In this document: piece after piece, positions 9,330-55,000 of the stretch
Layout of the letters: every line of letters starts with the position of its first letter
Numbering within the stretch: the first letter of the stretch is position 1
Notes under the pieces: generated by a model
The model's database searches: none
What the model was told of the DNA's origin: nothing
What the model saw: the letters and a program-made list of their open reading frames with translations, nothing else
Virus record (IMG/VR): IMGVR_UViG_3300022242_000023
Coordinates: 1 to 64,000 of that record
Length of the DNA: 64,000 nt
Source of the DNA: a virus
Lineage: Duplodnaviria; Caudoviricetes
Strand: one strand, 5' to 3'
Translations under genes and position numbers: made by a program

Positions 9330-9332
9330 ATT

Positions 9333-12878: not shown

Positions 12879-12880
12879 AT

Positions 12881-13126: not shown

Positions 13127-13268
13127 AATAACAATGTTAATTGTAATAGTAGTATTTTGTATACTATTAATTATGGCAGTAAGAGAAGTTCTTGTACAAA
13201 GTAGAAAAAAATACAGGAAGACTACTGTTTCTGACTTTGATGAAACAGATATTTATAAGAAAAATTAA
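13119..13268 (+). CDS. small membrane protein upstream of the SPFH gene (not in ORF track)
   Basis: Hand-translated 49 aa MVKITMLIVIVVFCILLIMAVRE. Confidence 0.55.
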   Translation: MVKITMLIVIVVFCILLIMAVREVLVQSRKKYRKTTVSDFDETDIYKKN

Positions 13269-13278
13269 ACAATTAAAT

Positions 13279-26949: not shown

Positions 26950-27586
26950 TTTATTACAAAAATGGTATCCGTATTTTGTAAAATGGAAAATGTTAGGAAT
27001 ATTAGATGATGTAATAGATAGATTAAATATCTTATATAAAGATTGTACAGTATATCCTGAAAAACAAAAAGTGTTTAGAATATTTCAAGAAATTCCTCCT
27101 GAAAATGTTAAAGTAGTATTTTTAGGTCAAGATCCTTATCCAGGATACTACAAAGGATCTCCTTCAGCATGTGGGAGAGCTTTTGCTACTGAAAATGGAT
27201 ATTTAAATCCCAGCTTAAAAAATATGTTTAAAGAACTTGCTGATGATGTAGGTGTTAATTTAAATATTCCAATGGATTATTCATTACAAACTTGGGTAGA
27301 TAGTGGAGTATTTCTTTTAAATACAGCCTTAACTGTAGAAATGGGTATGCCAGGAGCACATTTAAAACTTTGGGAAAACTTTTCAAAAGAATTTATAACG
27401 AATTTTTCAAAAGATTTTAATGTAGTTTGGGTATTATTAGGAGGGAAAGCTCAACAATGGGATAAGTATATTTTAAACGGAGAAGTTATTACCGCTGCTC
27501 ATCCTTCACCTTTAGCTGGAGGTAAATTCTTTGGGTCTAAAATATTTTCAAAAATAAACAATTTTAAAGAAATAAAATGGCAATAA
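26933..27586 (+). CDS. ung: uracil-DNA glycosylase, family 1
   Basis: GQDPY, LLNTALTV and HPSPL. Confidence 0.95.
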   Translation: MISYTSLLQKWYPYFVKWKMLGILDDVIDRLNILYKDCTVYPEKQKVFRIFQEIPPENVKVVFLGQDPYPGYYKGSPSACGRAFATENGYLNPSLKNMFKELADDVGVNLNIPMDYSLQTWVDSGVFLLNTALTVEMGMPGAHLKLWENFSKEFITNFSKDFNVVWVLLGGKAQQWDKYILNGEVITAAHPSPLAGGKFFGSKIFSKINNFKEIKWQ

Positions 27587-28950
27587 TAAAATACGAGATA
27601 GATATATATGAAGATCTATTGGTAACTGCAAAAAAGTTAATGTGGAAACAGCCTTTAATGGGATTTTTCCTAGCAACATTACATAAGAAAGTTATATACA
27701 AAGGGGATCCAGAAGAAAAGGATATAAAAACTGCTGCAGTAGGAAAATCTAAAGGAGACTTAAATTATAGTCTATATGTTAATGCAGAATTCTGGAAAGA
27801 TTTAACAGACTTACAAAAACAAGATGTTTTATTACATGAGTTAAATCACATATGTTATTTTCATCCAACAATGTCTAAGTCTTTTTCTCAAAAAGAACTC
27901 TTTAATATAGCAGCTGATATAGAAATCAATCAACATCTGCCAAATCTTCCAGATAATGATATGCCTTTAGACAAGTATGTGGAATGGATAGAAGCTCACA
28001 AAAAAGAAATCCAAGAAGGTAAAATTGTAGCTCCTGCAAGATTTTGCAGATTAGAAGATTATGGTTTCAAAAAAGAAGCCGATGACTTCAAAGGTACTAG
28101 ATATTACTATGATAGACTAATGGCCATAATAAATGATCAGAAAAATCAATCTCCAATGGCTAAAAGTTTAAGGCAAATGGTAGCTTCTATGGGTGAAGAA
28201 AATAGTCCATACCCTTGCTCTCATAATACATGGAAGAATTTTGAAGAAGATAGTGATATAGAAAGTGAATTAATAGACGAAAATGTTAAAAGTCTTCTTA
28301 AAAGAATCATGTTAGAAAATGAACATCAAAGATCTCAACTTATTGGTAGTTTACCAGGATATTTGAGAAATTTGATAGAAGATCTTCTTAAAGAAAGACC
28401 ACCTATATTTAACTGGAAATTATATGTAAGAAGATTTGTTGCAAAATCTATAGATTCTTATGTAAGAACTACAAGAAGTAAACCTAATAAAAGATTAGAT
28501 GAAGAAATGCCCACTATTAAAATTATTGAAAAATATTGTTTATTAATGGGTGTAGATACATCAGGTAGCATGAGTAATGAAGATATAGCTCAGTGTTTTA
28601 CTGAAATACATCATGTATATAAAACAGGTAATACTGTATTGGTGGCAGAATGTGATGCTGCATTAGATAAAAACAATGATGTATACAAATACACTGGTAA
28701 GTATCCTACAAAAAGATTAGGTTTAAGTGGAGGAGGAGGTACAAACATGGACCCTGTATTAGCATACGCTAATGAAAATGTTAATTCACTAACATGTTTA
28801 ATACACATAACTGATGGTTATATACCAATTCCAAAAGTTAAATGTAAAGTTCCTACTTTAATAATAATTACACCAGATGGTGCAAATCCTGAAGATTTGA
28901 TTAAAGGAGGTTTGAAATATCCTGTAATTAAAATGAATAGAGATTGTTAA
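27577..28950 (+). CDS. metallopeptidase-vWA protein (DUF2201-like)
   Basis: HELNH zincin motif; MIDAS VDTSGSM, GGGGT and ITDG. Confidence 0.85.
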   Translation: MAIIKYEIDIYEDLLVTAKKLMWKQPLMGFFLATLHKKVIYKGDPEEKDIKTAAVGKSKGDLNYSLYVNAEFWKDLTDLQKQDVLLHELNHICYFHPTMSKSFSQKELFNIAADIEINQHLPNLPDNDMPLDKYVEWIEAHKKEIQEGKIVAPARFCRLEDYGFKKEADDFKGTRYYYDRLMAIINDQKNQSPMAKSLRQMVASMGEENSPYPCSHNTWKNFEEDSDIESELIDENVKSLLKRIMLENEHQRSQLIGSLPGYLRNLIEDLLKERPPIFNWKLYVRRFVAKSIDSYVRTTRSKPNKRLDEEMPTIKIIEKYCLLMGVDTSGSMSNEDIAQCFTEIHHVYKTGNTVLVAECDAALDKNNDVYKYTGKYPTKRLGLSGGGGTNMDPVLAYANENVNSLTCLIHITDGYIPIPKVKCKVPTLIIITPDGANPEDLIKGGLKYPVIKMNRDC

Positions 28951-32811: not shown

Positions 32812-33225
32812 ATGAAAAAAAAGAAAAAAACAAGTAAGAACAATGTGTTACCAATTATATTAAATAAGAAAGGTAATAAAAATGATGCAGGTAAACCTCC
32901 TGTAACCCAGTTACTGAGGCAATTCCCTTCTGCTATTAAATATGTATCTAAATGTTCTGAATATGGACATAAAGAATATGGGGAAAAAGAGAATGAAGAG
33001 TTATGGGACAATTGGAGATATGTAGAAGAAGCTAAGTTTAGATATAAACAAGCTGCGGGAAGACATTTTCTAGAAGAAAATGGTAAGTTTGATGAAGGAA
33101 GTGGTTTATATCATATAGCACATTGCATATGGAATTTATTAGCAGAATTGCAATTTCAATTAGAAGAAGATTTTCAAAAAAATATAAAAAATGAAGGACA
33201 TAAATTTGATATTAAAGAACGTTAA
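32812..33225 (+). CDS. dATP/dGTP diphosphohydrolase domain protein (DUF5664)
   Basis: KNDAGKP, GHKEYG..NW, AAGRH and DEGSGLYHIAH. Confidence 0.85.
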   Translation: MKKKKKTSKNNVLPIILNKKGNKNDAGKPPVTQLLRQFPSAIKYVSKCSEYGHKEYGEKENEELWDNWRYVEEAKFRYKQAAGRHFLEENGKFDEGSGLYHIAHCIWNLLAELQFQLEEDFQKNIKNEGHKFDIKER

Positions 33226-33457: not shown

Positions 33458-33706
33458 GTGAAAAGTTACACAAAAACTTTTTTAGAATATATGGAGAAAA
33501 TTCATAATATTCTTCCTCATGAACTATTATGTGAAGTATGTCAGCAAAAAGCTGTTGACATACATCACATTTTAGGAAAAGGTAAATATCCAGAATTGAC
33601 AAATGATGTTAATAATTTAATAGCACTATGTAGAAAATGTCATGATAAATATGGACAGAAAAAGCAATATGTGGAATATTTACAATCTATAATTAAAAAA
33701 AGATGA
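33458..33706 (+). CDS. HNH endonuclease
   Basis: CEVC...DIHHI...NLIALCRKCH. Confidence 0.9.
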   Translation: MKSYTKTFLEYMEKIHNILPHELLCEVCQQKAVDIHHILGKGKYPELTNDVNNLIALCRKCHDKYGQKKQYVEYLQSIIKKR

Positions 33707-33882
33707 AAACGATAGTTTCAAGGATACGTGTACATAAAACTTATTCGCATATTAATAGCTCTCATAAGTATTTCATTAATATTAATGTTAATGAACCTAT
33801 TATAGAAGACGAAGGTTTTTTTGATTTATCAATAGTTGAATCAATAGTGCAAAGTTTAATAACTAAATATCATAATATTTAA
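33703..33882 (+). CDS. microprotein B1
   Basis: 59 aa MKTIVSR...DLSIVESIV. Confidence 0.65.
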   Translation: MKTIVSRIRVHKTYSHINSSHKYFININVNEPIIEDEGFFDLSIVESIVQSLITKYHNI

Positions 33883-33888
33883 TAAATA

Positions 33889-34059
33889 ATGAAGAAATAT
33901 TTGATAACTTATAAAAGACGTTATATTAAGTCTTTTGATCTTTATAATTACGAGCTTTATCATGATAAATTATACTCTAGTATTGTAATATTATCTATAG
34001 AACGTGAAATTTTAGCACTTGAAAGACAGTTTTATGCGATTAAAAATAATAAATCATAG
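33889..34059 (+). CDS. microprotein B2
   Basis: 56 aa MKKYLIT...ILSIEREI. Confidence 0.65.
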   Translation: MKKYLITYKRRYIKSFDLYNYELYHDKLYSSIVILSIEREILALERQFYAIKNNKS

Positions 34060-34186
34060 ACATTACTATTATAATCATACATATATGTATGAACTTCGTA
34101 GTTGGACAGGAAATAAATTAAATAGTTCATTCTCTATCATATGGATAGAAGAATATATTAAATATCTAAAGGAAAATGAAATTTAA
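34034..34186 (+). CDS. microprotein B3
   Basis: 50 aa MRLKIIN...IIWIEEYI. Confidence 0.65.
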   Translation: MRLKIINHRHYYYNHTYMYELRSWTGNKLNSSFSIIWIEEYIKYLKENEI

Positions 34187-34319
34187 AATATGTAATTTTA
34201 AAATAGCAGATATAATTTATGGAAAGTATAGATATAAATTGCATAAGGATCATGAAGTTGGTCATAATTTACGCCAAATTGAAGGTGTAATCATTATACT
34301 AACTAACTGTTTTAAATAA
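34176..34319 (+). CDS. microprotein B4
   Basis: 47 aa MKFKICN...LRQIEGVI. Confidence 0.65.
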   Translation: MKFKICNFKIADIIYGKYRYKLHKDHEVGHNLRQIEGVIIILTNCFK

Positions 34320-34329
34320 AAGTTCAATA

Positions 34330-34485
34330 ATGAAATTAAAAATTACTAATGAAAAAATAGATAAATGTTATTTATATACTGTACATTTACCAAATGGAGA
34401 AACGTATAGATATGATATATTATTTTTAATAGGTTGTTGGTTTAAATTTTACGCTGATGAAATACACAATAAAATGGGTTGCTAA
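34330..34485 (+). CDS. microprotein B5
   Basis: 51 aa MKLKITN; lacks the conserved Glu. Confidence 0.6.
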   Translation: MKLKITNEKIDKCYLYTVHLPNGETYRYDILFLIGCWFKFYADEIHNKMGC

Positions 34486-34591
34486 AGGGAATTATTATGT
34501 ATTACTAAAAGGTTCCAGAACAATTTTTGGTGCAGGAAACTTGTTTTATTTAGAACATCTTTTTATACTATTTCATGAGAATCCTTCTTAA
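34457..34591 (+). CDS. microprotein B6
   Basis: 44 aa MKYTIKW...LFYLEHLF. Confidence 0.65.
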   Translation: MKYTIKWVAKGNYYVLLKGSRTIFGAGNLFYLEHLFILFHENPS

Positions 34592-34736
34592 AAATCATAG
34601 ATTAAGTAAATCAATTTATACATATAAAATTGAAAATGTAGATTATAGTAGATTTATTATGTCTATACATTTATGCAATATAGAAAGTCAAATAAAAATT
34701 CATGAAAACAAAAATTCTAATAAAAAGAACAATTAA
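34575..34736 (+). CDS. microprotein B7
   Basis: 53 aa MRILLKN...LCNIESQI. Confidence 0.65.
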   Translation: MRILLKNHRLSKSIYTYKIENVDYSRFIMSIHLCNIESQIKIHENKNSNKKNN

Positions 34737-34836
34737 TTCTCGTTACTATATAACTAATAGTAAAAATTTTATGACATATGGTTATTATATTAATCTGAAA
34801 TCAGTAGAACACGTTATAGAAAATTATTTTATATGA
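34702..34836 (+). CDS. microprotein B8
   Basis: 44 aa MKTKILI...LKSVEHVI. Confidence 0.65.
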   Translation: MKTKILIKRTINSRYYITNSKNFMTYGYYINLKSVEHVIENYFI

Positions 34837-34970
34837 AAATAATAATAAAATGTGATCTTACTAGAAGAATTAAAATCTACCAGCGTTTACGTAAATGCTA
34901 TCATATTAGAAGTTTTTCTTCTTTGCTGCAAATAGAAAAATTTATTAAAAATGAAAATTATCATACATAA
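34833..34970 (+). CDS. microprotein B9
   Basis: 45 aa MKIIIKC...LLQIEKFI. Confidence 0.65.
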   Translation: MKIIIKCDLTRRIKIYQRLRKCYHIRSFSSLLQIEKFIKNENYHT

Positions 34971-35085
34971 AACAATGAAAGGTTGTAAAGAAACTATTAG
35001 AATTAATTATATCTATACTGTTAATAGTATAACACTAGGTAATTACATATTTCTTTCAACTTTAGAAAAAAGACTAAAAGAATAA
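34951..35085 (+). CDS. microprotein B10
   Basis: 44 aa MKIIIHK...LSTLEKRL. Confidence 0.65.
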   Translation: MKIIIHKTMKGCKETIRINYIYTVNSITLGNYIFLSTLEKRLKE

Positions 35086-35104
35086 ATAGGATAAGAAATA
35101 TTAA

Positions 35105-35275
35105 ATGAAAATTATAATAAGAAATAAGAAGGATTCTTCTTATACCGTGAGTAAATATAAATACAAATATTATATGTATAATAACGATAAAACTTGGGTT
35201 TATTGGCTATATCTTATAGAAGGTTATATTAAACATATGAAAAAATATGAAAAGATTAAAATTAAAAATAATTAA
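35105..35275 (+). pseudogene. microprotein B11, disrupted by two compensating 1-nt indels
   Basis: The ATG 35105 frame stops at 35114; family-like sequence continues in the adjacent frame and returns to the ATG frame near 35160 (LYLIEGYI). Confidence 0.5.
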
Positions 35276-35414
35276 AAGTAGTGAAAACGTATTAAAATGG
35301 AATATATTTTATATTATACCTCTTTCACACAAACATTATCTGAGAAAAAAATATCGTGTAAGTGGATATTTCATACAAGATATAGAAAAATATATTAAAA
35401 ATAGCTTCAATTAA
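35247..35414 (+). CDS. microprotein B12
   Basis: 55 aa MKRLKLK...IQDIEKYI. Confidence 0.65.
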   Translation: MKRLKLKIIKSSENVLKWNIFYIIPLSHKHYLRKKYRVSGYFIQDIEKYIKNSFN

Positions 35415-35559
35415 AATAGTATCTATAAAGGGCGGAGATTGTAAATATAGAATAGAAGTATATAATAAAAAAGTTTTAAAATATGCAATTAGATTTACTA
35501 CATTTGAACGTGTACATTCCTATGTAACTTATTTTTATGAAAATTATACTAAAAAATGA
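35401..35559 (+). CDS. microprotein B13 (no ATG; ATA at the expected start)
   Basis: 52 codons (I)ASIKIVSIK...TFERVHSYV. Confidence 0.45.
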   Translation: MASIKIVSIKGGDCKYRIEVYNKKVLKYAIRFTTFERVHSYVTYFYENYTKK

Positions 35560-35714
35560 TAACAATTAAATTAAACAGACAATTGCAGTCAAAATATGTA
35601 GTTATTTGTACATATCCTGATAACACTGTTCAAAATTTTCCAATGAGAGAGTTGCTGCAAGCAGAATGGTTTATAGAAGAAAGATCTAAAATTTATGGAC
35701 GACTTTTTAGTTGA
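35556..35714 (+). CDS. microprotein B14
   Basis: 52 aa MITIKLN...LLQAEWFI. Confidence 0.65.
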   Translation: MITIKLNRQLQSKYVVICTYPDNTVQNFPMRELLQAEWFIEERSKIYGRLFS

Positions 35715-35718
35715 ATTT

Positions 35719-35868
35719 ATGAAAAAGTATATTATAACAAATCATAGAATACATAGTTTAGAGATAATTATATATGACCTATATGTATATATAGATACCA
35801 CAGTTACTAATTATGAGGGTTGGAGCAGTTTAAAGCATTTAGAAGATATTATAATCTCGTATAAATAA
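35719..35868 (+). CDS. microprotein B15
   Basis: 49 aa MKKYIIT...LKHLEDII. Confidence 0.65.
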   Translation: MKKYIITNHRIHSLEIIIYDLYVYIDTTVTNYEGWSSLKHLEDIIISYK

Positions 35869-35869
35869 A

Positions 35870-36082
35870 ATGAAACCTAAAAAATACATATTGAAAAATA
35901 AACGTACTTCAAATATTGAATTTATACATTTTAATACATATAAACTTAGAATAAAATATCAATATTATGTAGCAAATCTTTTTAACAGTTACATTAGTGG
36001 GATACAAGAGGGTATGAGACATTATGACATCAACCATCCTGAAAAAACAATATTATCTGAAATAAATGAAATATATATTTAA
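35870..36082 (+). CDS. microprotein B16
   Basis: 70 aa MKPKKYILK...ISGIQEGM. Confidence 0.65.
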   Translation: MKPKKYILKNKRTSNIEFIHFNTYKLRIKYQYYVANLFNSYISGIQEGMRHYDINHPEKTILSEINEIYI

Positions 36083-36182
36083 AAATCACCGAAACCCTCA
36101 TTATAAGTATGTGTATTCTATAGTAGGTACAACTTCATTGTATATACATATACATAATATAGAATATATAATTAAATGTTAA
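36066..36182 (+). CDS. microprotein B17
   Basis: 38 aa MKYIFKN...IHNIEYII. Confidence 0.6.
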   Translation: MKYIFKNHRNPHYKYVYSIVGTTSLYIHIHNIEYIIKC

Positions 36183-36230
36183 ACATTATATAAGTGGTCA
36201 TATCAAGACTTAAAAAAAGAAAATTATAGT

Positions 36231-36359
36231 ATGAAATATAAAATTCAATATTATAAAAGATATAAGCTATATTCTTTATATGTTTTATATAAAGTTGCAG
36301 ATAACAGAGTAACTGCAAACATGTTCCATACACTGAAAGAAATTGAACGTCATATATGA
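36231..36359 (+). CDS. microprotein B18
   Basis: 42 aa MKYKIQY...LKEIERHI. Confidence 0.65.
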   Translation: MKYKIQYYKRYKLYSLYVLYKVADNRVTANMFHTLKEIERHI

Positions 36360-36505
36360 AATTTAAAATTACAAAATACAAGAATCATCGAAATGATGAT
36401 AGACACATATTATCTTACAATAATATTGATTACATTGAACTATTTATGTTACATAACATAGAAGATCATATAATTGAAATTTCTAAAAATGAAATATATA
36501 CTTAA
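36356..36505 (+). CDS. microprotein B19
   Basis: 49 aa MKFKITK...LHNIEDHI. Confidence 0.65.
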   Translation: MKFKITKYKNHRNDDRHILSYNNIDYIELFMLHNIEDHIIEISKNEIYT

Positions 36506-36662
36506 AAATTGTAAAAATGCTGATGGAGATTGGATGTACTTTATAACAAATTCCTATTTAGATAATGATGAATATATGGAATTTTTAAACTATTACTATC
36601 TTGAAAATCTTGAGTACTGTCTTTTAAAATATTATTATGAAAATAAAACTAGTTATAAATAA
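36489..36662 (+). CDS. microprotein B20
   Basis: 57 aa MKYILKN...LENLEYCL. Confidence 0.65.
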   Translation: MKYILKNCKNADGDWMYFITNSYLDNDEYMEFLNYYYLENLEYCLLKYYYENKTSYK

Positions 36663-36810
36663 TAAACCTTTTCCAGCTCCGCTTTCTTATTTTAATGCAT
36701 TTTCACTGAAAGTAAAAGGGAAAATTACAGTGTTAAATTGGGAATTCAATATAAAAGATATTGAAAATCAAATACAAAGAGATACTTATGCGATATACTA
36801 TAAAAAATAG
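36637..36810 (+). CDS. microprotein B21
   Basis: 57 aa MKIKLVI...IKDIENQI. Confidence 0.65.
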   Translation: MKIKLVINNKPFPAPLSYFNAFSLKVKGKITVLNWEFNIKDIENQIQRDTYAIYYKK

Positions 36811-36931
36811 AAAAGAACTTCGTTATCATAATTCTGATACGCATTTTTACATATATCATGTAACAAATTTTTATTTAAATTCATATGAATATATTTCACT
36901 CAGTACTTTAGAAAATTTATTTATAAGATGA
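36788..36931 (+). CDS. microprotein B22
   Basis: 47 aa MRYTIKN...LSTLENLF. Confidence 0.65.
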   Translation: MRYTIKNRKELRYHNSDTHFYIYHVTNFYLNSYEYISLSTLENLFIR

Positions 36932-37071
36932 ATTATAAAAAGATATTTATTATAAAAAGACTAACATATCATGATGGGTTTGACACATTAACATTATTGT
37001 TTAAATCAGATGGTGCATATAGATATATAAATTGGAAATTTACTATTAATGAAATTGAAAAACTTATATAA
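36928..37071 (+). CDS. microprotein B23
   Basis: 47 aa MNYKKIF...INEIEKLI. Confidence 0.65.
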   Translation: MNYKKIFIIKRLTYHDGFDTLTLLFKSDGAYRYINWKFTINEIEKLI

Positions 37072-37072
37072 T

Positions 37073-37249
37073 ATGTTTAAAATAAAAATGATTAATACTA
37101 GAGCAGAAGGATTTCGATGCTCTATTCATTATAATCATGAAGAACTCCTTATTCTTGGTAGCGAGTATACTAATAAAGTAACACACGGCACTAGTCTTAT
37201 CTTTGATATTATAGAATATAGATTAGTTAATAGATATAGAATTAATTAA
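37073..37249 (+). CDS. microprotein B24
   Basis: 58 aa MFKIKMI...FDIIEYRL. Confidence 0.65.
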   Translation: MFKIKMINTRAEGFRCSIHYNHEELLILGSEYTNKVTHGTSLIFDIIEYRLVNRYRIN

Positions 37250-37264
37250 TATAAAATAATTAAA

Positions 37265-37399
37265 ATGTATATCATACGTAAAAATACACTAACTAAATTT
37301 GGTTATACACTAATTAAAAAATCAAATAATTTCCATAAAGCATGGTCAGGTATATCTTTAAGATATGCAGAATCTATTATATCACATAATAAATTATGA
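37265..37399 (+). CDS. microprotein B25
   Basis: 44 aa MYIIRKN...LRYAESII. Confidence 0.65.
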   Translation: MYIIRKNTLTKFGYTLIKKSNNFHKAWSGISLRYAESIISHNKL

Positions 37400-37403
37400 G
37401 AAA

Positions 37404-37553
37404 ATGAAAAATAAAATATTTACTCTAAGAAAACCATTGTTTAATCATCATTTTATAGTTCTTATTTTATACAATCCTACAAGAGTTCTTCAAGGAGATA
37501 TTGAAACATTAGAAAAACTTATAGTACATTATTATCATGAACGTAATCCATAA
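37404..37553 (+). CDS. microprotein B26
   Basis: 49 aa MKNKIFT...IETLEKLI. Confidence 0.65.
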   Translation: MKNKIFTLRKPLFNHHFIVLILYNPTRVLQGDIETLEKLIVHYYHERNP

Positions 37554-37755
37554 AAGTTTATCATCAGATATATATGAATTAAAGTCTACTAGAAATAATA
37601 TTACAATGCCATACAAAACTATTATACCTACTCTTGAAAAAGTTAAAGTTTATGAAATATATATTAATAATGGGAAAGATTTACTTGAAATAGGGTACGA
37701 AATATCCTATGTGGAATATCATTTAAAATTACTTCTTAAATCAAATAAAATATGA
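37537..37755 (+). CDS. microprotein B27
   Basis: 72 aa MNVIHKS...ISYVEYHL. Confidence 0.65.
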   Translation: MNVIHKSLSSDIYELKSTRNNITMPYKTIIPTLEKVKVYEIYINNGKDLLEIGYEISYVEYHLKLLLKSNKI

Positions 37756-37919
37756 AATGCATTTTTAAAAATGTAAAAGGGAAAGGTTACTATAGTTATT
37801 TTATTACTAATTTATATACTATTTTATATCCCAGAGACGTACTTGTTGATCCATCTAGTGGAACTTATATGCAGATATCTTCTTTAGAAGAATTAGTAGA
37901 TTTTCACAAACAGATTTAA
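37752..37919 (+). CDS. microprotein B28
   Basis: 55 aa MKCIFKN...ISSLEELV. Confidence 0.65.
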   Translation: MKCIFKNVKGKGYYSYFITNLYTILYPRDVLVDPSSGTYMQISSLEELVDFHKQI

Positions 37920-37934
37920 AGAATGGTTTAAAGA

Positions 37935-38093
37935 ATGGAAAATAATAAAATCAAAATAATCAAGCATTCTTCTGGATATACCCTCTTTCCAAAACCTTTA
38001 AGATTTGATATATATGAAAATTTTTGTGTAATGTTAACAGGAACTTCTGATCTTAACATCAAAGATGTAGAAAGATTTATAAAAACTATGTAA
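37935..38093 (+). CDS. microprotein B29
   Basis: 52 aa MENNKIKIIK...IKDVERFI. Confidence 0.65.
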   Translation: MENNKIKIIKHSSGYTLFPKPLRFDIYENFCVMLTGTSDLNIKDVERFIKTM

Positions 38094-38105: not shown

Positions 38106-38417
38106 ATGAAAATAGAAAAATACATTGAAATTTTAGAAAAATTAAAATCTAAAATTATACCTATGACAGGGTATAAAGAATTAAATTACAACTCTAAATG
38201 TTTAGCAATAGAGAAGTTTAATTATCTGGTTACAGATAAAACATATGATAAAATATGTAAAAAATTACATAAAGAATTCGTAAAAGAATTAGAACTAGAT
38301 GAGCAAAGAAGTTCTGAAGAATATGTAACTATTCAGAAACTAGTATCTCAAAAGATAAAAGTTGGCACTCAAGAAGAAGTTAGTAAAAACTTAGAAATAA
38401 ATAAAATTATAACTTAA
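38106..38417 (+). CDS. hypothetical protein (last + strand gene)
   Basis: 103 aa; stop codon overlaps the stop of the convergent - strand gene. Confidence 0.7.
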   Translation: MKIEKYIEILEKLKSKIIPMTGYKELNYNSKCLAIEKFNYLVTDKTYDKICKKLHKEFVKELELDEQRSSEEYVTIQKLVSQKIKVGTQEEVSKNLEINKIIT

Positions 38418-43097: not shown

Positions 43098-46000
43098 TTA
43101 TGCTTCTCTCGTAGGCCCACATGCTGTTTCATCTTCATCAAGTGCAGGAGGACCTTTAATTTCTAAATCATCAGGGAATTCTTGTGTTTTTTCAACAGGA
43201 GAAAGCTGCTCATTTAACTTTCTTAAGATTTCATTTTTAATTTTTATAATACCAGGAGAAGATAAAGTAAGTATTTCTTTACCAGCATCTTTAGCAGATA
43301 TATCTATAATTCTATTGTCTGTTAATACATAAACTTTCAAATCTCCATGTTCAACTTTTCTTAAAGGATTATATCCATGTTTAACTTGAAACATATTTAT
43401 AAGTTTCTCATCTACTACCTCTACACCTTTTTCATCCCTTATAGTACCATTAGAGTATAATCCTAACTTTTGACCATTTACAATAATTTCTTTTTCAAGA
43501 GTTTCAACATTATCAGGTAAAATTTCTCTAATTTCATATTCTCTAGGTAATATAACATTGTCTGGAATTATGTTTTTAAGTTTTTCAAATAAACTTTTAA
43601 TTTCTTCTATTGAATATCCAGCTAATGAACTTCCAAGTTTAGTTACTAAAAATTTCTTATTTGGATTAGCTCTAGCAAATAATATCATATTTTGTAACTC
43701 TTTACCAATTTCTGATAAACTAGATGATTTTTCAACATCCCAATACTTTTTAGTTATTACTGCGTAAGATTGACCTTGCAACCCTTTACTTTGTCCTTGT
43801 ATTGCTCCAAATTTCTGTTTAGCTAGTAAAGCAGCACCTGCGCCATGAGTAGGTTTTCCTCCTTTTGAACTACCTTCATTACTACCAAATACAAATATTT
43901 CATTTGGTTTAAGAAATGTTATATTATCAGGGGTATATTCTCTGATTGTATTTACATCTTCTTCTAATTTAGGAACTTCATTTTCTGAAATTTCAATTTC
44001 TTCAGCTTTAATCTTATCATCTTGTTTGTATGTATTATTAACAGCTTTGGCAACACTATGTTCTGATTTAGTCTTTTCAGAATTGAGTTTATGATATTTC
44101 ATCTTAAAATCTGGGTAGAAACTTTGTTCATCAGCTTTAAGATTAAAGTTCTTAAATGCTTTAGGATTACCATTTAATCTTTGTATTTCATATACTCCAG
44201 CAGGATTCTTCTTATACAATACTGGTAAAGTAGCATTTTCATAATATACTGTAGAATGTAAGTATTCAGGTAATGAATCACCTTCATTACTATATATGTC
44301 TAAGAGATTTTCGTTTATCGTAAAACTAATAGGTATTACACTCTTGCTTACTTCACCATTAAATTCATTAGTAAAACTTTCACTATATTCTTCTAAAGCT
44401 TCTATATGATTTTGTATATCTACGTTTCTAGTATAGAAAGGATTTGTATATAAGATTCTTTCAGAAAGTTCTTTTTCTGACATGCTGTTCATTATATTTT
44501 TCAAATATTTAACAGGATTCTTAAATACATCTCTTACTATACTACCTTCTTCTGTAGAAGTATAAAAACTTACAGGTAACCACTGACTAAAAGAATCAAT
44601 TGTAAATCTAAAACTAGAAGTAATTAATGAATATAAACCAAGATCTTTAGCTAAAGAAGATATTTCTTCATTAGGATCTTTCATCATCTTTTCCCATAAA
44701 CTAGTTAAGTCTTCACCTTCTTCTCTACCAGGAGAAACAGCTCTACGTATTAATACTTCTTTTGTTACTTGCTCATACTTTAAAGCATTTAGAAAAGGTA
44801 AATATTCTTCATATAATTCTTTGAAATCAGATCTCTTCTTTAGATCAGCAAATCTTTTAGAGACATCTCTTATAAAGTCTTTACCTAATACTATAGAAGG
44901 ACTCATTTGGAATATCATATTATATATATCCAAATCTAACATTTTCCTATCTGATTTTTTAAACTCATCTAGTTCTAAGAACTCTGCTAAATTTGATCTT
45001 ATTTGTTCAAACTCTGGAGATAGGAAACTGAAATGTTCTTTCAAATTATTAGCCTGATCCATAGCTAACTGTATATACTTATCATTGAGTTTAAGTACAG
45101 ATGCATTTTCTTTTGAAAATTCATAATTAGCTGTCTCAGGATTGAATATAATATTTGGAACAATTAGATCTAAACCTGAAATTACAGGATCCTCTTTTTC
45201 AAAGTACTTTTTAAGTAAAGAACGTATCTTATCAATTTTATTTAAGTTATCATACAGTGTAGGTCCAAATGCTGCATCAGTATCAAACTTAGTAGCAATC
45301 ATTGCAGAAGTTAACTCGTCAGATATTTTAAAAAGCTCTTTAATTTTAACTAAAGCTACTATATCTGTAGTATTAGAATTATATTGAGTTAAACCTTTTT
45401 CAAAAACACTTCTTCCAGGATTTTTATCAAATTCTTGTTTGTAAAACTCTGTAAGAGGGAGATTTCTTTCTTTGGCAAAACTCTCTATTAACTTAGGAAT
45501 AGTGGTAGTATAATCTAAGTTAGTATTTATATAAATAGTTAAATCTTTTACTATCTTCTGATTTAAGATTAACATTATATCTCCAAAAGGTATTCCTAAC
45601 CTAAGAGCTGCCAATACCATAGAAACATTATTCCTGTCTATATTAAGTTTATCCATCAAAGGATTCTTAATATGTTCAGTAGATGCAAATAATATACTAG
45701 ATAGAGATTCAGAAATAAATTTATTATTTCTATTTCTCATATTACTTAGACTAGAATATGTATGTTGTAAGAAAGTAAAAGGTTTACTTAATTTTAATCC
45801 TTCAATATTCTGTACTACTGCATGATGCTTATTATGAGAAGCAGCAATTCCAATTATCTCTCCACCCACAATAGCTTTGTTAGCTGCATATATTTGGTAT
45901 ATAGGATCAGATATATCCATAGGAACACTAGTATCTTCTAGAACTACTCCTTTATCTTCAAATGCTTTTATTTGATCTCTTAACATATCAGCATTACCAC

Positions 46001-49000
46001 CTTTATGAAATTCTTCAGCAAAGTTTCTTGTCTGAGCAATCTTCTCATATATAGACATTCTAAGATTATGTCTAGCCATAGGAGTCTCCATTCCAGGAGG
46101 AACCATTTCTATATTACTTATAGTAATATTATCTTTAATTCTTCTAAAACGTTCTGGCTCTCTTAAGAATTCTATAGCTTCTGCTTCTACTTCACTATTA
46201 GGTATACCTCTGTTTAAAACTTTATTGAATAAAGCTTTTGCAGAACTATTATCATATTCTACAGTAAGAATTTCACCTGTATTTTCATTAAATAATTTCT
46301 TATCAGCAAAAAAACTATTTAATTCATCAACTACATAACTGAAATCTCCTTTAGTTAATTCAAAAGCTTTGAATAATACATATAGTTTATCAATATCAAA
46401 GTCTAGCCCAGTAATTGTAGTAGCTTCTTTAGGTAATATAATTAAAGAATCTGAATAACTTGGTATTAGATATTTTATTTTAATAGGGTATATTGAATAA
46501 TCCCCTTCAGTAGGAATTCTATAACCAAAAGCTTTTCGTAATTCATCTGTAGCTTCTTTACCTAATGCTTGTTCTATTCTTGTAAAATCTAAAAGACCTC
46601 TATCATCAGCTAATAAAGCTAAAGCATAATTATAAGCTGGAACAGCAGCATCAATATAATCAATTACTGTTTCACCTTTTTCATTTGTTTTATAATGTAT
46701 TTCAAGATTATCTTGGTAACTTTCTAAATCTGTAAATCCAACAGAAGAAGCATTTACAAAAGGAGCACCAGGAACTTTGTTATTTAAAGCTTTCTTAGTC
46801 TTAGAGTTGATTAGTTTAAGATTATCATCTATAGTCAAAGGAAAATTTAAAGGAATATTCAAATCTCCATCTTGGTGCTTGGATAAACTTTCTATTACAG
46901 ACATAGGTTTACCTTGCTCACTAGCTTGAGCTAATAATGTATTTCTTAAACTATCTGTATCTTTTAATGCCTCATTTAAACTAACTCTATTTTCATCTAT
47001 ATCTCTAGTAAAAGTTTCATCTAATACAGATCTAACTTGTTCTGGAGTCATTTTACCATAACCTTCTACCTCTACTTCTTCTTCAAGATTAGCTGGCATG
47101 ATTACTTTAAACTGAGATCCTTCTTCTATTTTACCTTGAAAGTGTTTTTCACTAGGAACAATGTTTTGTCTACCATACCCTTCCATAGAAGTTTCCACTA
47201 CAGATGCTAATATAGTATCTATGTCCATATTATCTATTGATTCTCTTTTGAGAACTTTAGAATTATCTCTATCAACTTTATTAACACTTTGAAAACTTAT
47301 TCCATCAATACCGTGTTCATGAAATAAATAAAGAATTTTAGCTAAGAAAGGTCTTCTATATTTTGAAAAATCAGTTTTGTCAGAAGGTTTTTCAACTTTA
47401 AAATCTTTAGTTAACCATGCCATAGCTGGAGTAAGAGTATACTCTGAGTTCTTCTCTTGGAAAGGTCTTAATAATTCTCCAGACTCTTCTTGGTTAAAAT
47501 AGTAAGGTTTTTGAACAGGGAAAACAAATTCTGCAGATTCACCATTCTTAATTCTTTCAGCAATTTCTATTTCACGATCAGAAATTTCATCAAATCCTCT
47601 CATAACATCTACTGTAAAATCAATAGAGTTTATGGTTTGAGCATCTGTAATATTATGACCTTTATTATAGTCTCCAGCTAATTCAGGAAAGTCTTCTTTG
47701 AGAGTATCTAATTCATTACTTGGAATTAATATATCATCTACAGTTATCCTTCTCTTTTTTCTAGGAGTTCCATCTTTATATGTAAAGAGCGCATGTTGCT
47801 TAGGTGAATGAGCTTCTTTAAACCTCTTAAGAAAGTCTACTAATAAACTATTTTTATAATCAAAAGGTGCATCATCAGACTTATATGTACCATAAAAAGC
47901 AGGATCTCCAGCTAATAAAGGTATTAACTGAGTATTATAATAATACTGATTAAAGAATTGAGTCTTTATATCACCTTCTAAGTCATCTTTAAAGCTAGAA
48001 CTACTATCATCTATTATATCATCAGTTTTAACAAGTTTTGAACCTTCTTTAACTAATACTCCATCCTTTACTAATTTTTCAGTATATGCTTCAAACTTTT
48101 TATTTAAAACACTAGATATAAAACCTTCTAATCTTTCAGTGAGTTCTGGTCCTAATTCTACTCCGCCATTTGCTTTATACAATTCTATAATAGTATCCTT
48201 TTTAGAATTTAAAAAAGGTAATAGTATAAAATGTTTACCGTTTATGTTAAAGTTTCTGTAATTGGTTTTGTTATTTTCAAGATATATAATCCTATTTAAT
48301 TCAGCATGCGCAGTTCTAACTAATTTATTTACTACGTCATCCAAGGATACTGTTGGAGCATTCATATACCCAGAAGATGTAGCATCAGAAAACGGAGGTA
48401 AAGCAATTACTATCTCCTTACCATTACTATTATACATTCTTTCTAATGCATAATTTAACTGCTGAGTAATTAGGTCATAATTAAAATACTTGTTATAAGT
48501 AATTCCATTATATGTACCTTTTATACCTATACCATTATCATAATGAGGTTCAAATATCTCTATAGATTTGCTCAATAAAGCATCATATATAGGTAAGTCT
48601 TTATGTAAGATCTTATTCTTAATTGTAGCTAAAGCAGATTTAGGACTTTCTTTAAACTTGTTAAAGAGAGTTGTCAAATGATTATTCATCTGATGAATAT
48701 ATTCAGCTTCACCTTGAACAGTTGTAATATTCATTACATATGATTGCTGATCATGTTTAGCTAATAAATCAGATACTTCTTTTATCTGTTGCTTTGTAAG
48801 TTTGCTTTCAATGACACTGAAAGGATTTTTACCTTCTTTAATTGCATTAAATACTGGTAGAGCATTAATGCTCAAGCTCTTGTTAGAGAATTCATTACTT
48901 TCAAGCTCTACAGCAATTTCTTGATCAATGTTATAACCTAAGAAAGTATATATACGTTCTATGTCTACAGCATTAAGAAGATTATTATTAGTAATACTAT

Positions 49001-52000
49001 TCTCTAAGATCTTATAAATTTCTAAAAATTCTAATGAATCAAGTTCTTTATTTAAGAACATTATTTCAGCATGTCTCTTGAACATTTTCCATAAACCTTT
49101 CTTAGAAGAATTATGTACACGTATTCCTCTTCTACTTCTCTCTGTATTTATAAATACAATATTTCTTTGAGAACCAGTTATTAAGTATAAATTTTTAAAC
49201 CATTTACTCGCTGAAAGTTTATATACATATTCAGGATCATATTTCTTACTATTCTTATCTAATTTTTCTACATTAATATCTTCTCCTGATTGTAGAATCT
49301 TTTTACCTACTAATTCATTCTTAATTTTCTCAACTAATGTATCTGCATAATCCTTTGTCTTAGCTAAGTCTATTAACTTTAACATGGTTTGTTCAGGAGA
49401 TGATCCTGAAAGTTTATTCAATAATCTATTAAATAGTACATCAAAGTTATGATATATCTTAGCTCCTGTTTTAGGATCTATTTTATCAACATAATGACCT
49501 AATTCTCTTTCTCTTACAGGAATTAAAGACATTAATTCTCTAATTTTACCTTTAACATTTGTCTTAGGATTCACATTAGTATCTCTAATTAATGTAGTTT
49601 TCTCATCAAATTCATTTGCATCTTGAGTAATTTGAACTCCAGCACTATATAAGTTATTCATATATTGTGCTATATACAACTGAAGTTTAAGAAGATCTTC
49701 TTTATTTTCTAATATATTCTTTAATTCACCGTAGTTTTCTAATTGTTCAGGACTGTTATGTTTCTGGAACCAAAGATCAATATAAGTAGGTAATTCATTA
49801 AAAAACTCTTTATTAAACTGAGATTTATTACCAGATTCTATAATAGCATTGTATGTATAGTATTGAGCTATATTAGTTTTTTTACCATCTTTATTAATAG
49901 TATTTGATTTAAAAGTTCTAACTGCCAGATGTACTAAGTTCTGTGCTATAAATTTAGCATGTTCACGTATCTGTTTTATATTTGAAACTTTGAACTTTCC
50001 TTGATGTAATAATCTAGCAAAGTTTTCAGAATAGTTTTTATTGAAAGCATTAGTTCTCCCCCCAAATATACTTCTACCAAATATATTTCTATCTAATTGA
50101 TAAAATAAATCTTCTACAGATATCTTAGTAGTAAAGTAAGGTTTTAATTGTTGATAACTATCGTATATAAAATTATATAATGAATCTAAAAATTTAGCAA
50201 TCTTAGGATATTTCTTTTTAAAATTCTCAGAAACAAATCCATCAGTAGCTTTATAAGTCTCAAATAATTCTGCTAACTTTTCTTCTAATCTAATTAAAGG
50301 ATTTTGTTTTTTGTAATATTCTTCTTCTGATTTTAAACGTATAGCACTTTGATCTCTATTATTATCAATAGTTATTTCATTCCAAGTATTACCATGCTCA
50401 TCAGTAACCTGTTTTACATTATCTTTACCATAAGTTTTATTAAGAATATTACTTACTGTATTTTCATAAAAATTATAAATAGGTTTTAATGCACCAAATC
50501 CTTCCTTATCAATTCTTTCAAGTTCTTGTTTAAGTTGGTTTATTTCAACTTTTGAATCTTCTTGTTTAGTTTTAATATATTGATTGTAACTTTTTACAAC
50601 TAATTCTTCATTAGCTTTTTGCTGATTAAAACTTTGATTACCTGTTTGATATTGAATTAACCATTCTCCACTTCTCCCATCTAATTCTACTGTTTCTCCT
50701 TTATTATCTCTGAATTGAAAATACCTTAAATAGGTAGGTTGTTTTATTTCAGAAGAATTAGTAATAGTATTGAAATCTTTTTCAAGTTCTTTAATCCTAT
50801 CTTCTTTTTGTTTCTTAAACTCTTCTAAAGTAGTATGCCCTTCAACTTTACTAGCTGTATTACCAGTAGGAAACAAAACTTTTTCATATCCTTTTTTAGC
50901 ACTATCTTGTATGATAGATTTAACAAAGAATGTTACCCAATTATTATCTTTGTTTAATAGTTGTAGAAATTGATTAGATTTAATATTTTTTCTTTTTTCT
51001 ATAATTTCTTCTATTGTATTACCATCTACATTTTGGTATTCTTCAGAATACTCATTTATTAAATTATCTTTATCTCTACCTTTCTGAAATAAATCAGATT
51101 GTACTTCAAGTATTCTACGAGTTTTAGTATTAGTTCCTTTTTGTATATAACCTTTAACCCCATATTGATTATCATATATAGCATATATATCAGTATCATT
51201 TAAATCTGCTCTTTCATGTAAAGAACCGTCACTATCTAAATATTTCCAAATATTATTCTCTTTAAACCATTTTCCATTTTCATCATTAAATGAATTTGGG
51301 TAATCCTTAGATGTTATATATTCTTCATCACTTCTAAACCAACCAATACCTTTATCAGTACTAAATTGAGCATGACCTTTAATAGAAGGAGTAATAGCTC
51401 CTTTTCTTACAGTTTTAGTATTAGATTTAATAAAGCTTTTAAACCCTTCTATATCTTGTTTAGAACCTAATATATGAATTTGTTCTGGTTCAAATACTAC
51501 GAATTGAGCTACTCTTGAAGGAGTTATAATACCATCAAATCCTTTTTCTTGTAATTTTTTTGAAAAAGGAATTAAACGAGAATCTTCTTCTAATAATTCT
51601 TTATCGCTAAATCCTAATCTTTTACCTTCATAATATCTTTCAGACCATTCTTGTTCTTGTGGTGTGAGTTTATATGTAGTTCTTGGATTACTTGGGTTTT
51701 TAATATCTAAAATAGCAGTATATAATTCTCCATATCTTAAAGCTTCTTCTTTAATATTTGTAAAATAAAACCCATCACCTATTTCAAAATGAACTATTTG
51801 TTTAGAAGAACCTATATAATTTTTATTAAAACTATTATTTATAGGTATAGGACTATTTATTGAAACATTATTTTCAAATAATGTTATTCCATTATCATTT
51901 AAAATAAGTCCTATTCCTGCACCTATTATCTTGTTTTTACCTTCATATATTTGTACTCCTATATGCCAATTATTATTAGATACTTTTTCAGCCTTTAATA

Positions 52001-55000
52001 TTTTAATATTATAAGAATTTACATCTAAAATTTTTCCAAATTTATCTGGATAATTTTTAATAAATAATTCAATTATTTTATTTTGATACTCTTTATTGTA
52101 CTGTAATTGATTAAATACTCTCGAACTACCATGATAAACAATATCTTTTACTTTACTATCAGGAAATATAGTATCAAGATATTGAGAGTACAATTCTTGA
52201 GCTTGTTGTTTTTGTTGAGGAGTTATTTGTTGTTGTTTTTGTTCAAGGGTTATTTGATTATTTAGCTCTGCTAATTCTGCATCGTATTTAGCGTTGATTT
52301 CATTCTTTACATTCTCAATATTTTTATTTATAACATCTCTTGTACTAGATAACCCATTTTCGGTAGGTGTTAAATCCCTATTAATAAAATCTATGTGCGA
52401 GCCAGATATTCCAGCCTTTGGTATAGCATTATCATTTCTAATATCACCTAATTGAGTATCTAATTCTTCTGAAAGAAGTTTAAGTATTTTGCTATCATAA
52501 TAATTATTGATTTCATTACCAGATAACTTATTCATCCATCCATCTTGTGCTATACCAAATATAGGATACCACTTACCAGATGTAACATCAGCTTTACCTC
52601 CATGCCCAGTAGATAGATAAAACGGAACATTCATTCCATTTACATTAAGAACTACCACTTTTCTACCAGCTAAATCAATAATGGGGGATTTCCCTCTAAC
52701 TTTTCTTTTATTACCATCAGCAGTTTGGTCATAAATAGTAGTTTCGTATTCAATTTCTTGACGATTCTTAACTATATTTTTTACATCTTCTTGTATCCTT
52801 CTTTCTATATCAGATTTTTGTTGTTGTTTTTGTTCATCAGAAATATTTCCAGTAAACCCTAAAGCTTCATATACACTATTAGCCAATTCAGGATTAGATT
52901 CAAATAGTTCAGAAACTCCTTGTTTTACAGGAACCCCTTGAGGCTTTTCCTGTATCTCTACTCCAGGTATAGCTATTTCATTTTCTGTATAATTAGTACC
53001 TCCTGGAACTGTTAGATTAGAGTAGTATTGTGTTGGTTTATTTAAAGTTTTATTGTATTCATTCATTGCTTCTGAATACTTTTTTTCTCCTATTTCTTTT
53101 CCATTTTTAGTAAAAGATAATATACCAAAATCATTAAATTCATATTTATCATTATCTAGTATAAAATCTATATAATCTGTACTAAATTTACTATGATATT
53201 TTTGTTCTTTAGCAGTATTAATCTCAACAGTATAACTATAATTAGAAGCTAATTCTAAAGCATATTGTAAAGGTTCATCATAAATAGCAAATTGTTTTTG
53301 TACAAAATCTTGTTCTATTTGTTCTATTAATTCTTTTTGTTCTTTAGGTATTGCAAGTTCAGTTAATATCTTATCTAAACTCCAATTGTTTTTTCTTCCT
53401 TTATTAAATATTTGTTTAGCTTTTTCAGATTGTAATATATCTACTGCTTTAAGTACATAATCAACTTGATCTTCAACTTTAAATCTATTACTATCAATAG
53501 GTTTATTTAAATCATTTTCAAACTCTTCTTTAGTTATACCTAATTCTTTACCATATTTCTTATAAGCCTCATTAAGAACTTGTTTTCTTTGTTTATCATT
53601 TAAGAACAGATTAAAAGCAACGTGAAAAGCTTCATGCTTTCCTACATTTAATCCAGCATCTGAAGATAGATATACTACAGCATTATAAAATGCCCCCCAT
53701 ACTTTACCATCTCCTACATTGTATATATTAGATATAATTCTTAAAGCTTCATCTGAAACTTTAACTCCTAAATTTTCAAATCTATCTTTGATATATTTTT
53801 CAGCAGCTCCTTCTTTAAATTCTTCTACTGTGGTTGTATCATCAGTATATTTAGCAAAAAAATTACCTTCTGGGACTTCTGTATTATTTTCTAATTCAGC
53901 TCTCATTCGAGCTTTTTTTTCTTCTGAAACTTCTTGTTTTGACACTTGTGTTTCATTAGATCTTACTTTAAATTCAATTACTGTAACATCATCTTGAGAT
54001 TTATTTTCTTTTCTTAGACTTTCAGATTTATTTATTATTTCATCAAAACTATCCCCTTTATTCGATATATTAGGCACCTCATCCGTATATAATAATACAT
54101 TATCACCAGCTTTTACATCTACTTCTTGTATTATTTCATCTATTGATTTATTTTTTGCTAAAACAGTACTGTTTGTTTTAATATTAAAATTTACATTAGT
54201 TTTAATTCCTTGTTTTATCTTTTCACCATTTATTTCAACAAAAGAATCTCCAATGCTAAATATTTTATTTAATTTTGGTATGTATAAAATTAGAGTACCA
54301 ATTTGACCTGTTTGAGATCCATTTGTGAAATCTGGGGATTTTATTACCAAAGAATTTAAGATATCATATAAAGATTGCTTATCTTTTATTTCACCTTTTC
54401 TTTTTGCAATTTCTTCAACTAATTGATGGGATAATGATCCCTCAGCAGAATCTGACATTCCATCTGACATAACAATTATATCATTAGAAACAAAGAAAGC
54501 ATCTTCAATATAGTTATCTGCGTAACCTTTCCTATTTTTATTTTGTGTGTAAACTTTTACGCCATTAATAGTTTGTACCTTGCCAAGGTTTTTATTTATT
54601 TTAGTGCTTTGAATTACATCTTTTGTTTTTATTTTTTCACCTGTTTTGATATCTTTTAATGTTTCTATTTCTTCTTTACTACTAGTTCTTTCTACATCTA
54701 TATATACTTCACCTTGCTCATAATATCCTTCATCTATAGTTTTTAGATCTGTAGATACTAAATCAGGATGTTCTAATAAGAAATCTTTAGTATTATGACT
54801 AGGAACATGTACCCTTACTTCCCCTAATTTTGCAACAACCTGATCAACAGATAATCCATATTCTATTTTATATTCACCTTTCTTTCCTTTAGTAGAAATA
54901 GCAAATCCAGGTAATAATTTACTAGCATTTTCATAACCTTCTTTAGTAAGATAATCAATACCAGAAGGTGTATAATAAGTAATAACTGGACCCAATCCTC

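Follow-up and report, generated by a model that had tools for sequence, protein, structure and literature searches.

The window analyzed here comprises the first 64 kb (64,000 nucleotides, nt) of an 86.3-kb virus record (IMG/VR IMGVR_UViG_3300022242_000023), classed as linear and about 70% complete, and carries at positions 33703-38093 of its + strand an array of 29 tiled units encoding proteins of 38-72 amino acids (aa). Twenty-eight open reading frames (ORFs) of at least 38 aa starting with ATG span 94.2% of the + strand in this interval, whereas the opposite strand holds two such ORFs covering 5.9%. In 300 dinucleotide-preserving shuffles the number of ORFs averaged 1.3 (maximum 5) and their coverage 4% (maximum 18%). 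A preliminary description, drawn up from the letters alone, had proposed about 29 consecutive same-strand ORFs of this size, and is borne out by the 28 ATG ORFs together with one unit that lacks an ATG; the shuffled sequences that it put forward as a check reproduce neither the tiling nor the motif count reported below. Most neighbors overlap, as it had stated: 18 of the 28 junctions are overlapping, five of them being of the ATGA type and the others of 11-35 nt, and the widest gap measures 48 nt.

Most units bear a late motif of the form [hydrophobic]-x-x-[ILVA]-E-x-x-[hydrophobic], given here after the length of each protein. The strain designations refer to near-identical strains recovered from many samples, whose flanks are 99.5-99.8% identical. 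Unit 1 (33703-33882, 59 aa, LSIVESIV), which strain L004/L026 has as an in-frame fusion with unit 3, is followed by unit 2 (33889-34059, 56 aa, ILSIEREI), deleted in L004/L026/L033, and by unit 3 (34034-34186, 50 aa from an internal ATG, IIWIEEYI). Unit 4 (34176-34319, 47 aa, LRQIEGVI) precedes unit 5 (34330-34485, 51 aa), in which the Glu motif is absent, and unit 6 (34457-34591, 44 aa, LFYLEHLF), a weak member. The run continues with units 7 (34575-34736, 53 aa, LCNIESQI), 8 (34702-34836, 44 aa, LKSVEHVI), 9 (34833-34970, 45 aa, LLQIEKFI, with an ATGA overlap) and 10 (34951-35085, 44 aa, LSTLEKRL), then with unit 11 (35105-35275, 56 aa, LYLIEGYI), shortened to 33 aa by a deletion in L001-L003, and unit 12 (35247-35414, 55 aa, IQDIEKYI). 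Unit 13 (35413-35559) has an open frame with ATA instead of ATG at 35401-35403 in the window strain, and is a 52-aa ATG gene in sister strains. A single G/A difference at 35403 is at once a Ser/Gly exchange in unit 12 and the gain or loss (ATG/ATA) of the start of the overlapping unit 13.

Unit 14 (35556-35714, 52 aa, LLQAEWFI) is another weak member, and unit 15 (35719-35868, 49 aa, LKHLEDII) is read from an internal ATG. Unit 16 (35870-36082, 70 aa) starts with an A run that is one A longer in five other strains, which shifts the frame. The shortest protein is that of unit 17 (36066-36182, 38 aa, IHNIEYII), the member chosen for modeling, and is followed by unit 18 (36231-36359, 42 aa, LKEIERHI), unit 19 (36356-36505, 49 aa, LHNIEDHI, with an ATGA overlap), the acidic unit 20 (36489-36662, 57 aa, LENLEYCL), unit 21 (36637-36810, 57 aa, IKDIENQI), unit 22 (36788-36931, 47 aa, LSTLENLF) and unit 23 (36928-37071, 47 aa, INEIEKLI), again with an ATGA overlap. 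Unit 24 (37073-37249, 58 aa, FDIIEYRL), a weak member, shows seven substitutions between strains. Beyond units 25 (37265-37399, 44 aa, LRYAESII) and 26 (37404-37553, 49 aa, IETLEKLI) lies unit 27 (37537-37755, 72 aa, ISYVEYHL), a deletion fusion whose head derives from a 45-aa unit and whose body derives from one of 60 aa. Unit 28 (37752-37919, 55 aa, ISSLEELV) is the unequal-crossover product of two paralogs that are both kept in L004 and L027, and unit 29 (37935-38093, 52 aa, IKDVERFI) closes the array.

The late motif is present in 26 of the 29 units, exactly the count first reported, compared with a mean of 4.05 and a maximum of 10 in 1000 peptide shuffles, and its density (19 per 1000 aa) exceeds that in the large proteins of the phage (1.1) about 18-fold. 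When the family is aligned, 27 of the 29 units have Glu in the Glu column. At the N-terminus, M[KR] is found in 22 of the 29 units and M[KR]xx[ILVM] in 18, as compared to 6 of 60 large proteins for the latter; the strict form M-[KR]-x-x-I-x-[KN], said to open nearly all units, occurs in nine of the 29 and had been overstated. N- and C-terminal motifs coincide in 17 units and in none of 122 decoy small ORFs. The proteins are indeed Tyr-rich (10.4% versus 4.4%) and barely alignable, with 8-42% identity to the reference unit and a mean column identity of 18%. Most units are basic (isoelectric point, pI, of 9-10 and net charge of +2 to +10) with high contents of Tyr and His, and five are neutral or acidic.

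In leave-one-out tests with profile hidden Markov models (HMMs), 19 of the 29 units outscore 198 or more of 200 composition-matched shuffles; individual support is missing for about five units (those starting at 33889, 34457, 35556, 36928 and 37073). Eight further units, present only in strain L027 and lying outside the model-building set, offer an independent sample, of which six score above all 200 shuffles, the scores reaching 22 bits. AlphaFold2, run on the family alignment for the 38 residues of unit 17, returned a model with a predicted local distance difference test score (pLDDT) of 84.9, consisting of two strands (residues 5-8 and 16-19), a short third strand (25-26) and a helix (29-37). 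The units are predicted to fold as a three-stranded sheet packed on a C-terminal amphipathic helix that bears the conserved Glu. Together, the leave-one-out scores, the independent units and the beta-beta-beta-alpha model agree with the earlier proposal of one small scaffold, amplified and diversified.

The array is laid out as a polycistronic block on one strand only. Base composition at third codon positions is the same in the array as in the large genes of the phage; the codon-model frame test from which this figure comes is circular for ORFs, and only the position-specific base composition was taken from it. Start contexts are A-rich and without a Shine-Dalgarno sequence, alike in the array and in the large genes. 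The codons of the motif vary synonymously: the first hydrophobic position (-4 to Glu) uses six Leu codons in addition to Ile and Phe codons, and the codons before the Glu (-1) are ATA, ATT, TTA, CTT, GTT, GTA, GTG and GCA. This synonymous variation indicates that the constraint acts on the protein and not on the DNA, and it rules out a role of the motif, at the DNA level, as a signal to the gene that follows; also counting against such a signal, the distance from the Glu codon to the next start (standard deviation 18 nt) is no less variable than its distances to the start and the stop of its own unit (13 nt each). A single long gene read under another genetic code was discarded as well, as the frame shifts at nearly every unit junction.

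The claimed absence of terminators and repeated spacers was confirmed: promoter-like and terminator-like sites in the array are not in excess over shuffles, Bacteroidetes-type promoters are fewer than expected by chance, and neither repeated spacers nor intergenic cassettes were found in the array, where the only repeats are short matches at gene starts and ends. An Rfam search of the array gave no match. In phage phi14:2, early genes read by the virion polymerase show no common upstream motif (bioRxiv 10.1101/2020.03.07.982082), and the lack of recognizable promoters in the array is therefore uninformative on the timing of its expression. We consider it very probable that the array is a translated, fast-evolving paralogous microgene family.

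The comparison of array content and of substitution rates between related genomes, recommended in the preliminary description, was made here across strains. The colinear portion of the array is 98.85% identical between strains, and its length ranges from 4391 nt and 29 units in the window to 4617 nt and about 31 units in L004/L026 and to 5853 nt and 38 units in L027, the fullest version. With respect to L027, the window is missing 1285 nt (7-8 units), with a 13-nt microhomology at the breakpoint, and as a consequence of this deletion carries the 72-aa fusion ORF of unit 27. It has also lost one of two paralogs of 75% identity, the event that produced unit 28. L004/L026 in turn lack two other segments, one of 178 nt, whose loss yields the in-frame fusion of units 1 and 3, and one of 1034 nt; the breakpoint overlaps are 5 and 12 nt. 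The events amount overall to three deletions, all with breakpoints at microhomologies of 5-13 nt, one unequal crossover, one start-codon loss and one frameshift. The frameshift is that of unit 16, where the extra A in the run at 35870-35890 could reflect decay, slippage-dependent expression or an assembly error.

Over all strains, the array has 35 nonsynonymous and 4 synonymous point differences and the flanking genes have 15 and 27, respectively (Fisher p = 7e-7). Between the window and L004, the ratio of nonsynonymous to synonymous polymorphism (pN/pS) reaches 2.46 in the array (28 nonsynonymous and 3 synonymous changes), compared to 0.09 in the downstream 1557-aa gene and 0.44 upstream. None of the strain differences is a substitution at the motif Glu. 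Our results show that the array currently undergoes birth-and-death evolution, in which most point mutations change amino acids, single units lose starts or frames, and recombination removes or merges units. They also suggest that repeated tandem duplications built the family, these being mostly old with one recent pair. Adjacent units are slightly more alike than random pairs (permutation p = 0.03), a signal resting mainly on that recent pair, and the other duplications are saturated.

The array also appears to break assemblies. The contig of a strain with 87-91% identity in structural genes (L007) breaks off right at the array's 3' edge, at window position 38097, and several other contigs end inside the array.

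The 1557-aa protein encoded downstream matches 55 records, all of them Bacteroides or uncultured crAss-like phages or Cellulophaga phages (E values down to 1e-31, 21-25% identity). Because its matches are restricted to these groups, we place the phage, which has a GC content of 29%, as a distant crAss-like phage, the assignment resting on homology of this protein and on the giant virion gene. Its host is likely a low-GC member of the Bacteroidota. A gene flanking the array is present in at least 41 index blocks and on contigs of up to 122 kb. The + strand up to 38.4 kb constitutes the replication module, with DNA polymerase, helicases, primase, ATPases, a RusA-like resolvase, a dGTP diphosphohydrolase-like gene and a small HNH gene, and meets, in convergent orientation, a - strand block that encodes giant proteins (1557 and 5438 aa). 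The array, with a GC content of 22% versus 29% in the phage, sits at the 3' end of this module, on the strand opposite to the structural genes. Directly upstream of it lies the small HNH endonuclease gene (33458-33706, + strand), which is the same neighbor in related phages, and before that the dGTP/dATP diphosphohydrolase-like gene (32812-33225, + strand) that serves as the upstream synteny anchor. Downstream, a 103-aa gene (38106-38417, + strand) that is not a family member closes the + strand series; past it lies the convergent junction, on whose other side stands the 1557-aa structural gene, which the 5438-aa ORF (43098-59414, - strand) adjoins. Elsewhere in the window, annotations conflict for a 457-aa protein (27577-28950), whose PHROG match is labeled HNH endonuclease and whose sister-strain counterpart matches Pfam DUF2201_N and DUF2201.

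A second array of nine units of 57-83 aa (2024-3890, + strand) directly follows a tRNA-Leu(TAA) gene and appears to contain the same core with extra elements. The family HMM recognizes five of the nine units, and AlphaFold2 predicts for the member at 3488-3715 a beta-alpha-beta-beta-alpha-beta-alpha order (pLDDT 74), in which the family core is kept and further elements are added. Profile-profile comparison between the family and the second array gives a match limited to the 12-column region of the Glu motif, with a probability of 9%. Both arrays together would amount to roughly 38-47 family genes per genome.

In related phages the anchor order of dGTP diphosphohydrolase, small HNH, array and convergent junction is kept, while the array families cannot be aligned. 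In L038, whose ATPase is 56% identical, the dGTP diphosphohydrolase gene is followed by an HNH gene 63% identical to that of the window and then by about 11-14 small genes (38-104 aa; 11356-14105), which converge on an amidase gene and have a hydrophobic C-terminal helix signature of their own, [ED]N-hh..hh..Y.K. A homolog of the 103-aa gene of the window stands amid this run (E 3e-7 over 36 residues). In L041, where the diphosphohydrolase, an 88-aa gene and the HNH are respectively 64, 40 and 68% identical to those of the window, positions 6139-9626 carry at least 19 units of 44-60 aa of the type MKNKT...Y..YL...YEK, 18 of 19 cohering in a leave-one-out test. Members of the same family make up an array of 13 units at the end of G001, in which the homolog of the 1557-aa protein is 44% identical; an array of 13 units of this family is located at L023:4740-6761 (- strand). 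At many junctions of these MKNKT-family arrays, the terminal '...YEK stop' of one unit overlaps the 'MKN...' of the next in the same nucleotides.

Profile-profile comparison of the array families of the three lineages was non-significant and they could not be aligned. With the L041-family HMM, the units of the window reach E values no better than 0.01, which makes a common origin of these lineage-specific families no more than plausible. The three lineages, all with tens of microgenes at the locus, share core proteins that are only 44-56% identical, and in all of them a minimal HNH (71-82 aa) stands at the 5' edge of the array; this HNH type is very common in viral contigs (more than 575 matches). 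In other relatives the gene order at the side of the structural genes differs, and the available fragments show no array. As judged by these sequence comparisons, the locus is shown to be conserved in a crAss-like clade while its content has been replaced between lineages.

Searches for relatives of the window family point to a narrow distribution. None of the 29 units matched Pfam or PHROGs, and no family recurred across units. The profile-HMM search proposed at the outset was carried out exhaustively (hmmsearch of 1.84 billion representatives) and returned nine proteins, all of them units of this phage or variants differing in 1-2 residues. A DNA search against 50,697 phage records had no match, a search for related loci with the single 1557-aa protein found none, the family alignment offering no conserved segment that could serve in such a search, and the family HMM gave nothing in four related IMG/VR records and a best E of 0.039 among 80 HNH-bearing viral loci. 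This last value belongs to an unrelated HNH-bearing viral contig (L070:77-3057, GC 0.33), in which 14 small + strand ORFs lie upstream of the HNH gene. By these searches, the family is confined to this phage lineage. Against PDB sequences the best match was the non-significant 1rki_A (E 0.3). Structural comparison with Foldseek (PDB and BFVD), VIA-align and the ESM Atlas yielded no match above background, those obtained being to small beta-beta-alpha or HicB-like arrangements and within the range of common small arrangements (Z no higher than 4.5, Foldseek E of at least 0.9), and an ESM Atlas feature search gave no usable match.

The HicB-like/UPF0150 N-terminal domain has a small beta-beta-beta-alpha arrangement, as is predicted for the units. 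Presumably, this domain (PF15919) also resembles them in having, after the third strand, a helix that begins with an [ST]-L-E-E-like turn. The PF15919 profile found no match among the 29 units at E values up to 10, and the structural scores for the 38-residue model are at background, with template modeling (TM) scores of 0.53-0.57 for Atlas clusters and Z of 2.5-2.6 for PDB chains. There is no HicA partner.

The statement that no described system resembles the array was too strong. For Crassvirales, our literature search turned up no account of such microgene arrays. Viral multigene families, T4-type hyperplastic regions and the amplification of tifA are conceptual precedents. The MGF110/360/505 genes of African swine fever virus and the gene 'accordions' of poxviruses are birth-and-death multigene families of large DNA viruses. 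Like the array, they consist of tandem paralogs in a variable region, with copy numbers that vary between close strains, fast divergence and, as proposed for the array, dispensable copies and host-directed roles; unlike it, they belong to eukaryotic viruses, encode proteins of 100-500 aa and have partly known targets, whereas the array encodes phage proteins of 38-72 aa from overlapping genes.

The hyperplastic regions of T4-type phages share with the array the arrangement of small non-essential gene blocks between conserved modules (Arbiol et al., 2010, PMC2839356), and are the site of most insertions, deletions and replacements between close phages, driven by recombination (PMC2839356). They contain unrelated ORFans split by promoter-stem-loop cassettes that mediate exchange, in contrast to the one-scaffold paralogs and coding microhomology of the array. 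Cassettes of this PeSL type were ruled out there, given promoter- and terminator-like sites at or below shuffle level, no intergenic repeats and the narrow gaps between units. In T4, the small counter-defense gene tifA is amplified in tandem by recombination under host-defense pressure, with compensating deletions of accessory genes (Srikant et al., 2022, PMC9391042). Those copies are recent and identical and their target is ToxN, whereas the copies of the array are old and have diverged to about 20% identity.

Two other readings were rejected. A diversity-generating retroelement is ruled out, as no RVT_1 match exists in the 86-kb record (about 70% complete), no long near-identical repeat pair is present, and substitutions arise from A, G, C and T alike. 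An array of precursors of ribosomally synthesized and post-translationally modified peptides is excluded too: instead of a conserved leader and a hypervariable Cys/Ser/Thr-rich core, the units have conserved ends and a folded middle part, with Cys at 1.2% of residues, and the neighbors are HNH, dGTP diphosphohydrolase-like and replication genes rather than modification enzymes.

As the overall best explanation we propose, with a probability of about 0.5, that the array is a birth-and-death family of dispensable, probably host-directed mini-binders. The units would be individually dispensable accessory proteins, a set of small binders by which variable host proteins, for instance components of anti-phage defense, are inhibited or redirected; specificity would be carried by the variable strands and loops, and the conserved helix would hold the fold or give a shared contact. 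We favor a host-directed accessory role because units appear dispensable, the repertoire is strain-specific, amino-acid changes are in excess while the scaffold is kept, and the location is outside the core modules, features that mark accessory genes of viruses engaged with variable host factors. Taken by itself, the host-directed role, whether in anti-defense or in takeover, is put forward tentatively, at a little less than an even chance. It is unlikely that the whole of a more ambitious version holds, namely a 'microgene nursery', a locus of a crAss-like clade where the beta-beta-beta-alpha scaffold would be continually duplicated, recombined and mutated into a strain-specific, germline-encoded, antibody-like library of mini-binders against the variable defense and surface systems of Bacteroidota, with the HNH stimulating local recombination.

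Several results weigh against the proposal of host-directed binders. No characterized anti-defense protein resembles the units by sequence (Pfam, PHROG, PDB) or by fold, a chain of a Cas/anti-Cas complex being reached at Z 2.8 only, in comparisons with general libraries, none of them dedicated to anti-defense. The AlphaFold2 model was built on a 29-row alignment of the paralogs themselves. The nonsynonymous excess of the array is not significantly above neutrality (binomial p = 0.07) and the single recent paralog pair has a nonsynonymous to synonymous rate ratio (dN/dS) of 0.79, so that the counts are accounted for equally well by relaxed constraint and by positive selection; our claim is one of relaxed-to-diversifying evolution, short of proven positive selection. 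Finally, the FYMINK-rich composition and low GC correspond to the drift endpoint of weakly constrained sequence in this genome. These last observations lead to a view that we regard as improbable for the array as a whole: that it is largely evolutionary debris, the duplicates of a once-useful microgene expanding and contracting neutrally under very weak selection within packaging limits. Units that have lost their start codon, are frameshifted or truncated, strains missing 1-9 units in several samples, and a composition drifting to AT are what such a process would leave, along with substitution ratios indistinguishable from neutral. At 22% GC, however, about 9% of random codons are stops, and neutral sequence would therefore lose its roughly 29-38 open frames; scaffold residues, the Glu among them, persist while the rest is about 20% identical, tens of microgenes are maintained at the locus in three lineages with divergent core proteins, and packaging exerts pressure on phage genomes. 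Part of the array may still consist of decaying duplicates that drift almost neutrally.

A function in nucleic-acid binding, with the units regulating phage or host transcripts or protecting phage DNA, is likewise doubtful. It would fit the basic character of most units, their Tyr and His content, and the identity of their weak structural neighbors (HicB-type partial double-stranded-RNA-binding-domain-like, methyl-CpG-binding, zinc-finger-like beta-beta-alpha and a small ribosomal protein), but all of these fold matches fall in the range of common small arrangements, five units are neutral or acidic, a basic composition rich in Lys, Asn, Ile and Tyr is the default for AT-rich codons, and 30-47 different, individually dispensable binders are hard to motivate. 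Some phages package small basic proteins, and the array adjoins the giant virion protein block; internal or ejected proteins, decoration proteins or assembly chaperones are nonetheless quite improbable, as transcription of the array goes with that of the replication module, from the strand opposite to the structural genes, nearly identical strains differ in the copies they carry, as structural components seldom do, and PHROG structural families gave no match. Least credible of all is an untranslated array, a non-coding repeat or RNA locus with periodic motifs that mimic genes. The five very weak family members would suit it, yet ORF tiling on one strand is far above chance, the motif is kept as amino acids and not as nucleotides, DNA repeats go no further than the short gene-end matches, Rfam is silent and the predicted fold is confident.

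The principle of viral multigene families and hyperplastic accessory regions is already known, and the interest of the present case lies mainly in its strain-resolved dynamics, in a conserved locus with replaced content, and in a very small, confidently modeled scaffold. Genes shorter than 70 aa are largely missed or left unannotated in phage genomes; here they make up an array that takes roughly 5% of a phage of about 120 kb and is its most variable part. Contigs often stop at the array, which accounts for some of the breaks in assemblies. Should the units be host-directed binders, they would represent a natural library of folded scaffolds of 40-50 residues with many specificities, an aid to finding anti-defense mechanisms in Bacteroidota and a minimal scaffold for protein engineering. 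The array provides a clean, strain-resolved case of birth-and-death evolution in uncultured phages and, on the same premise of host-directed binding, could explain differences in host range between near-identical crAss-like strains.

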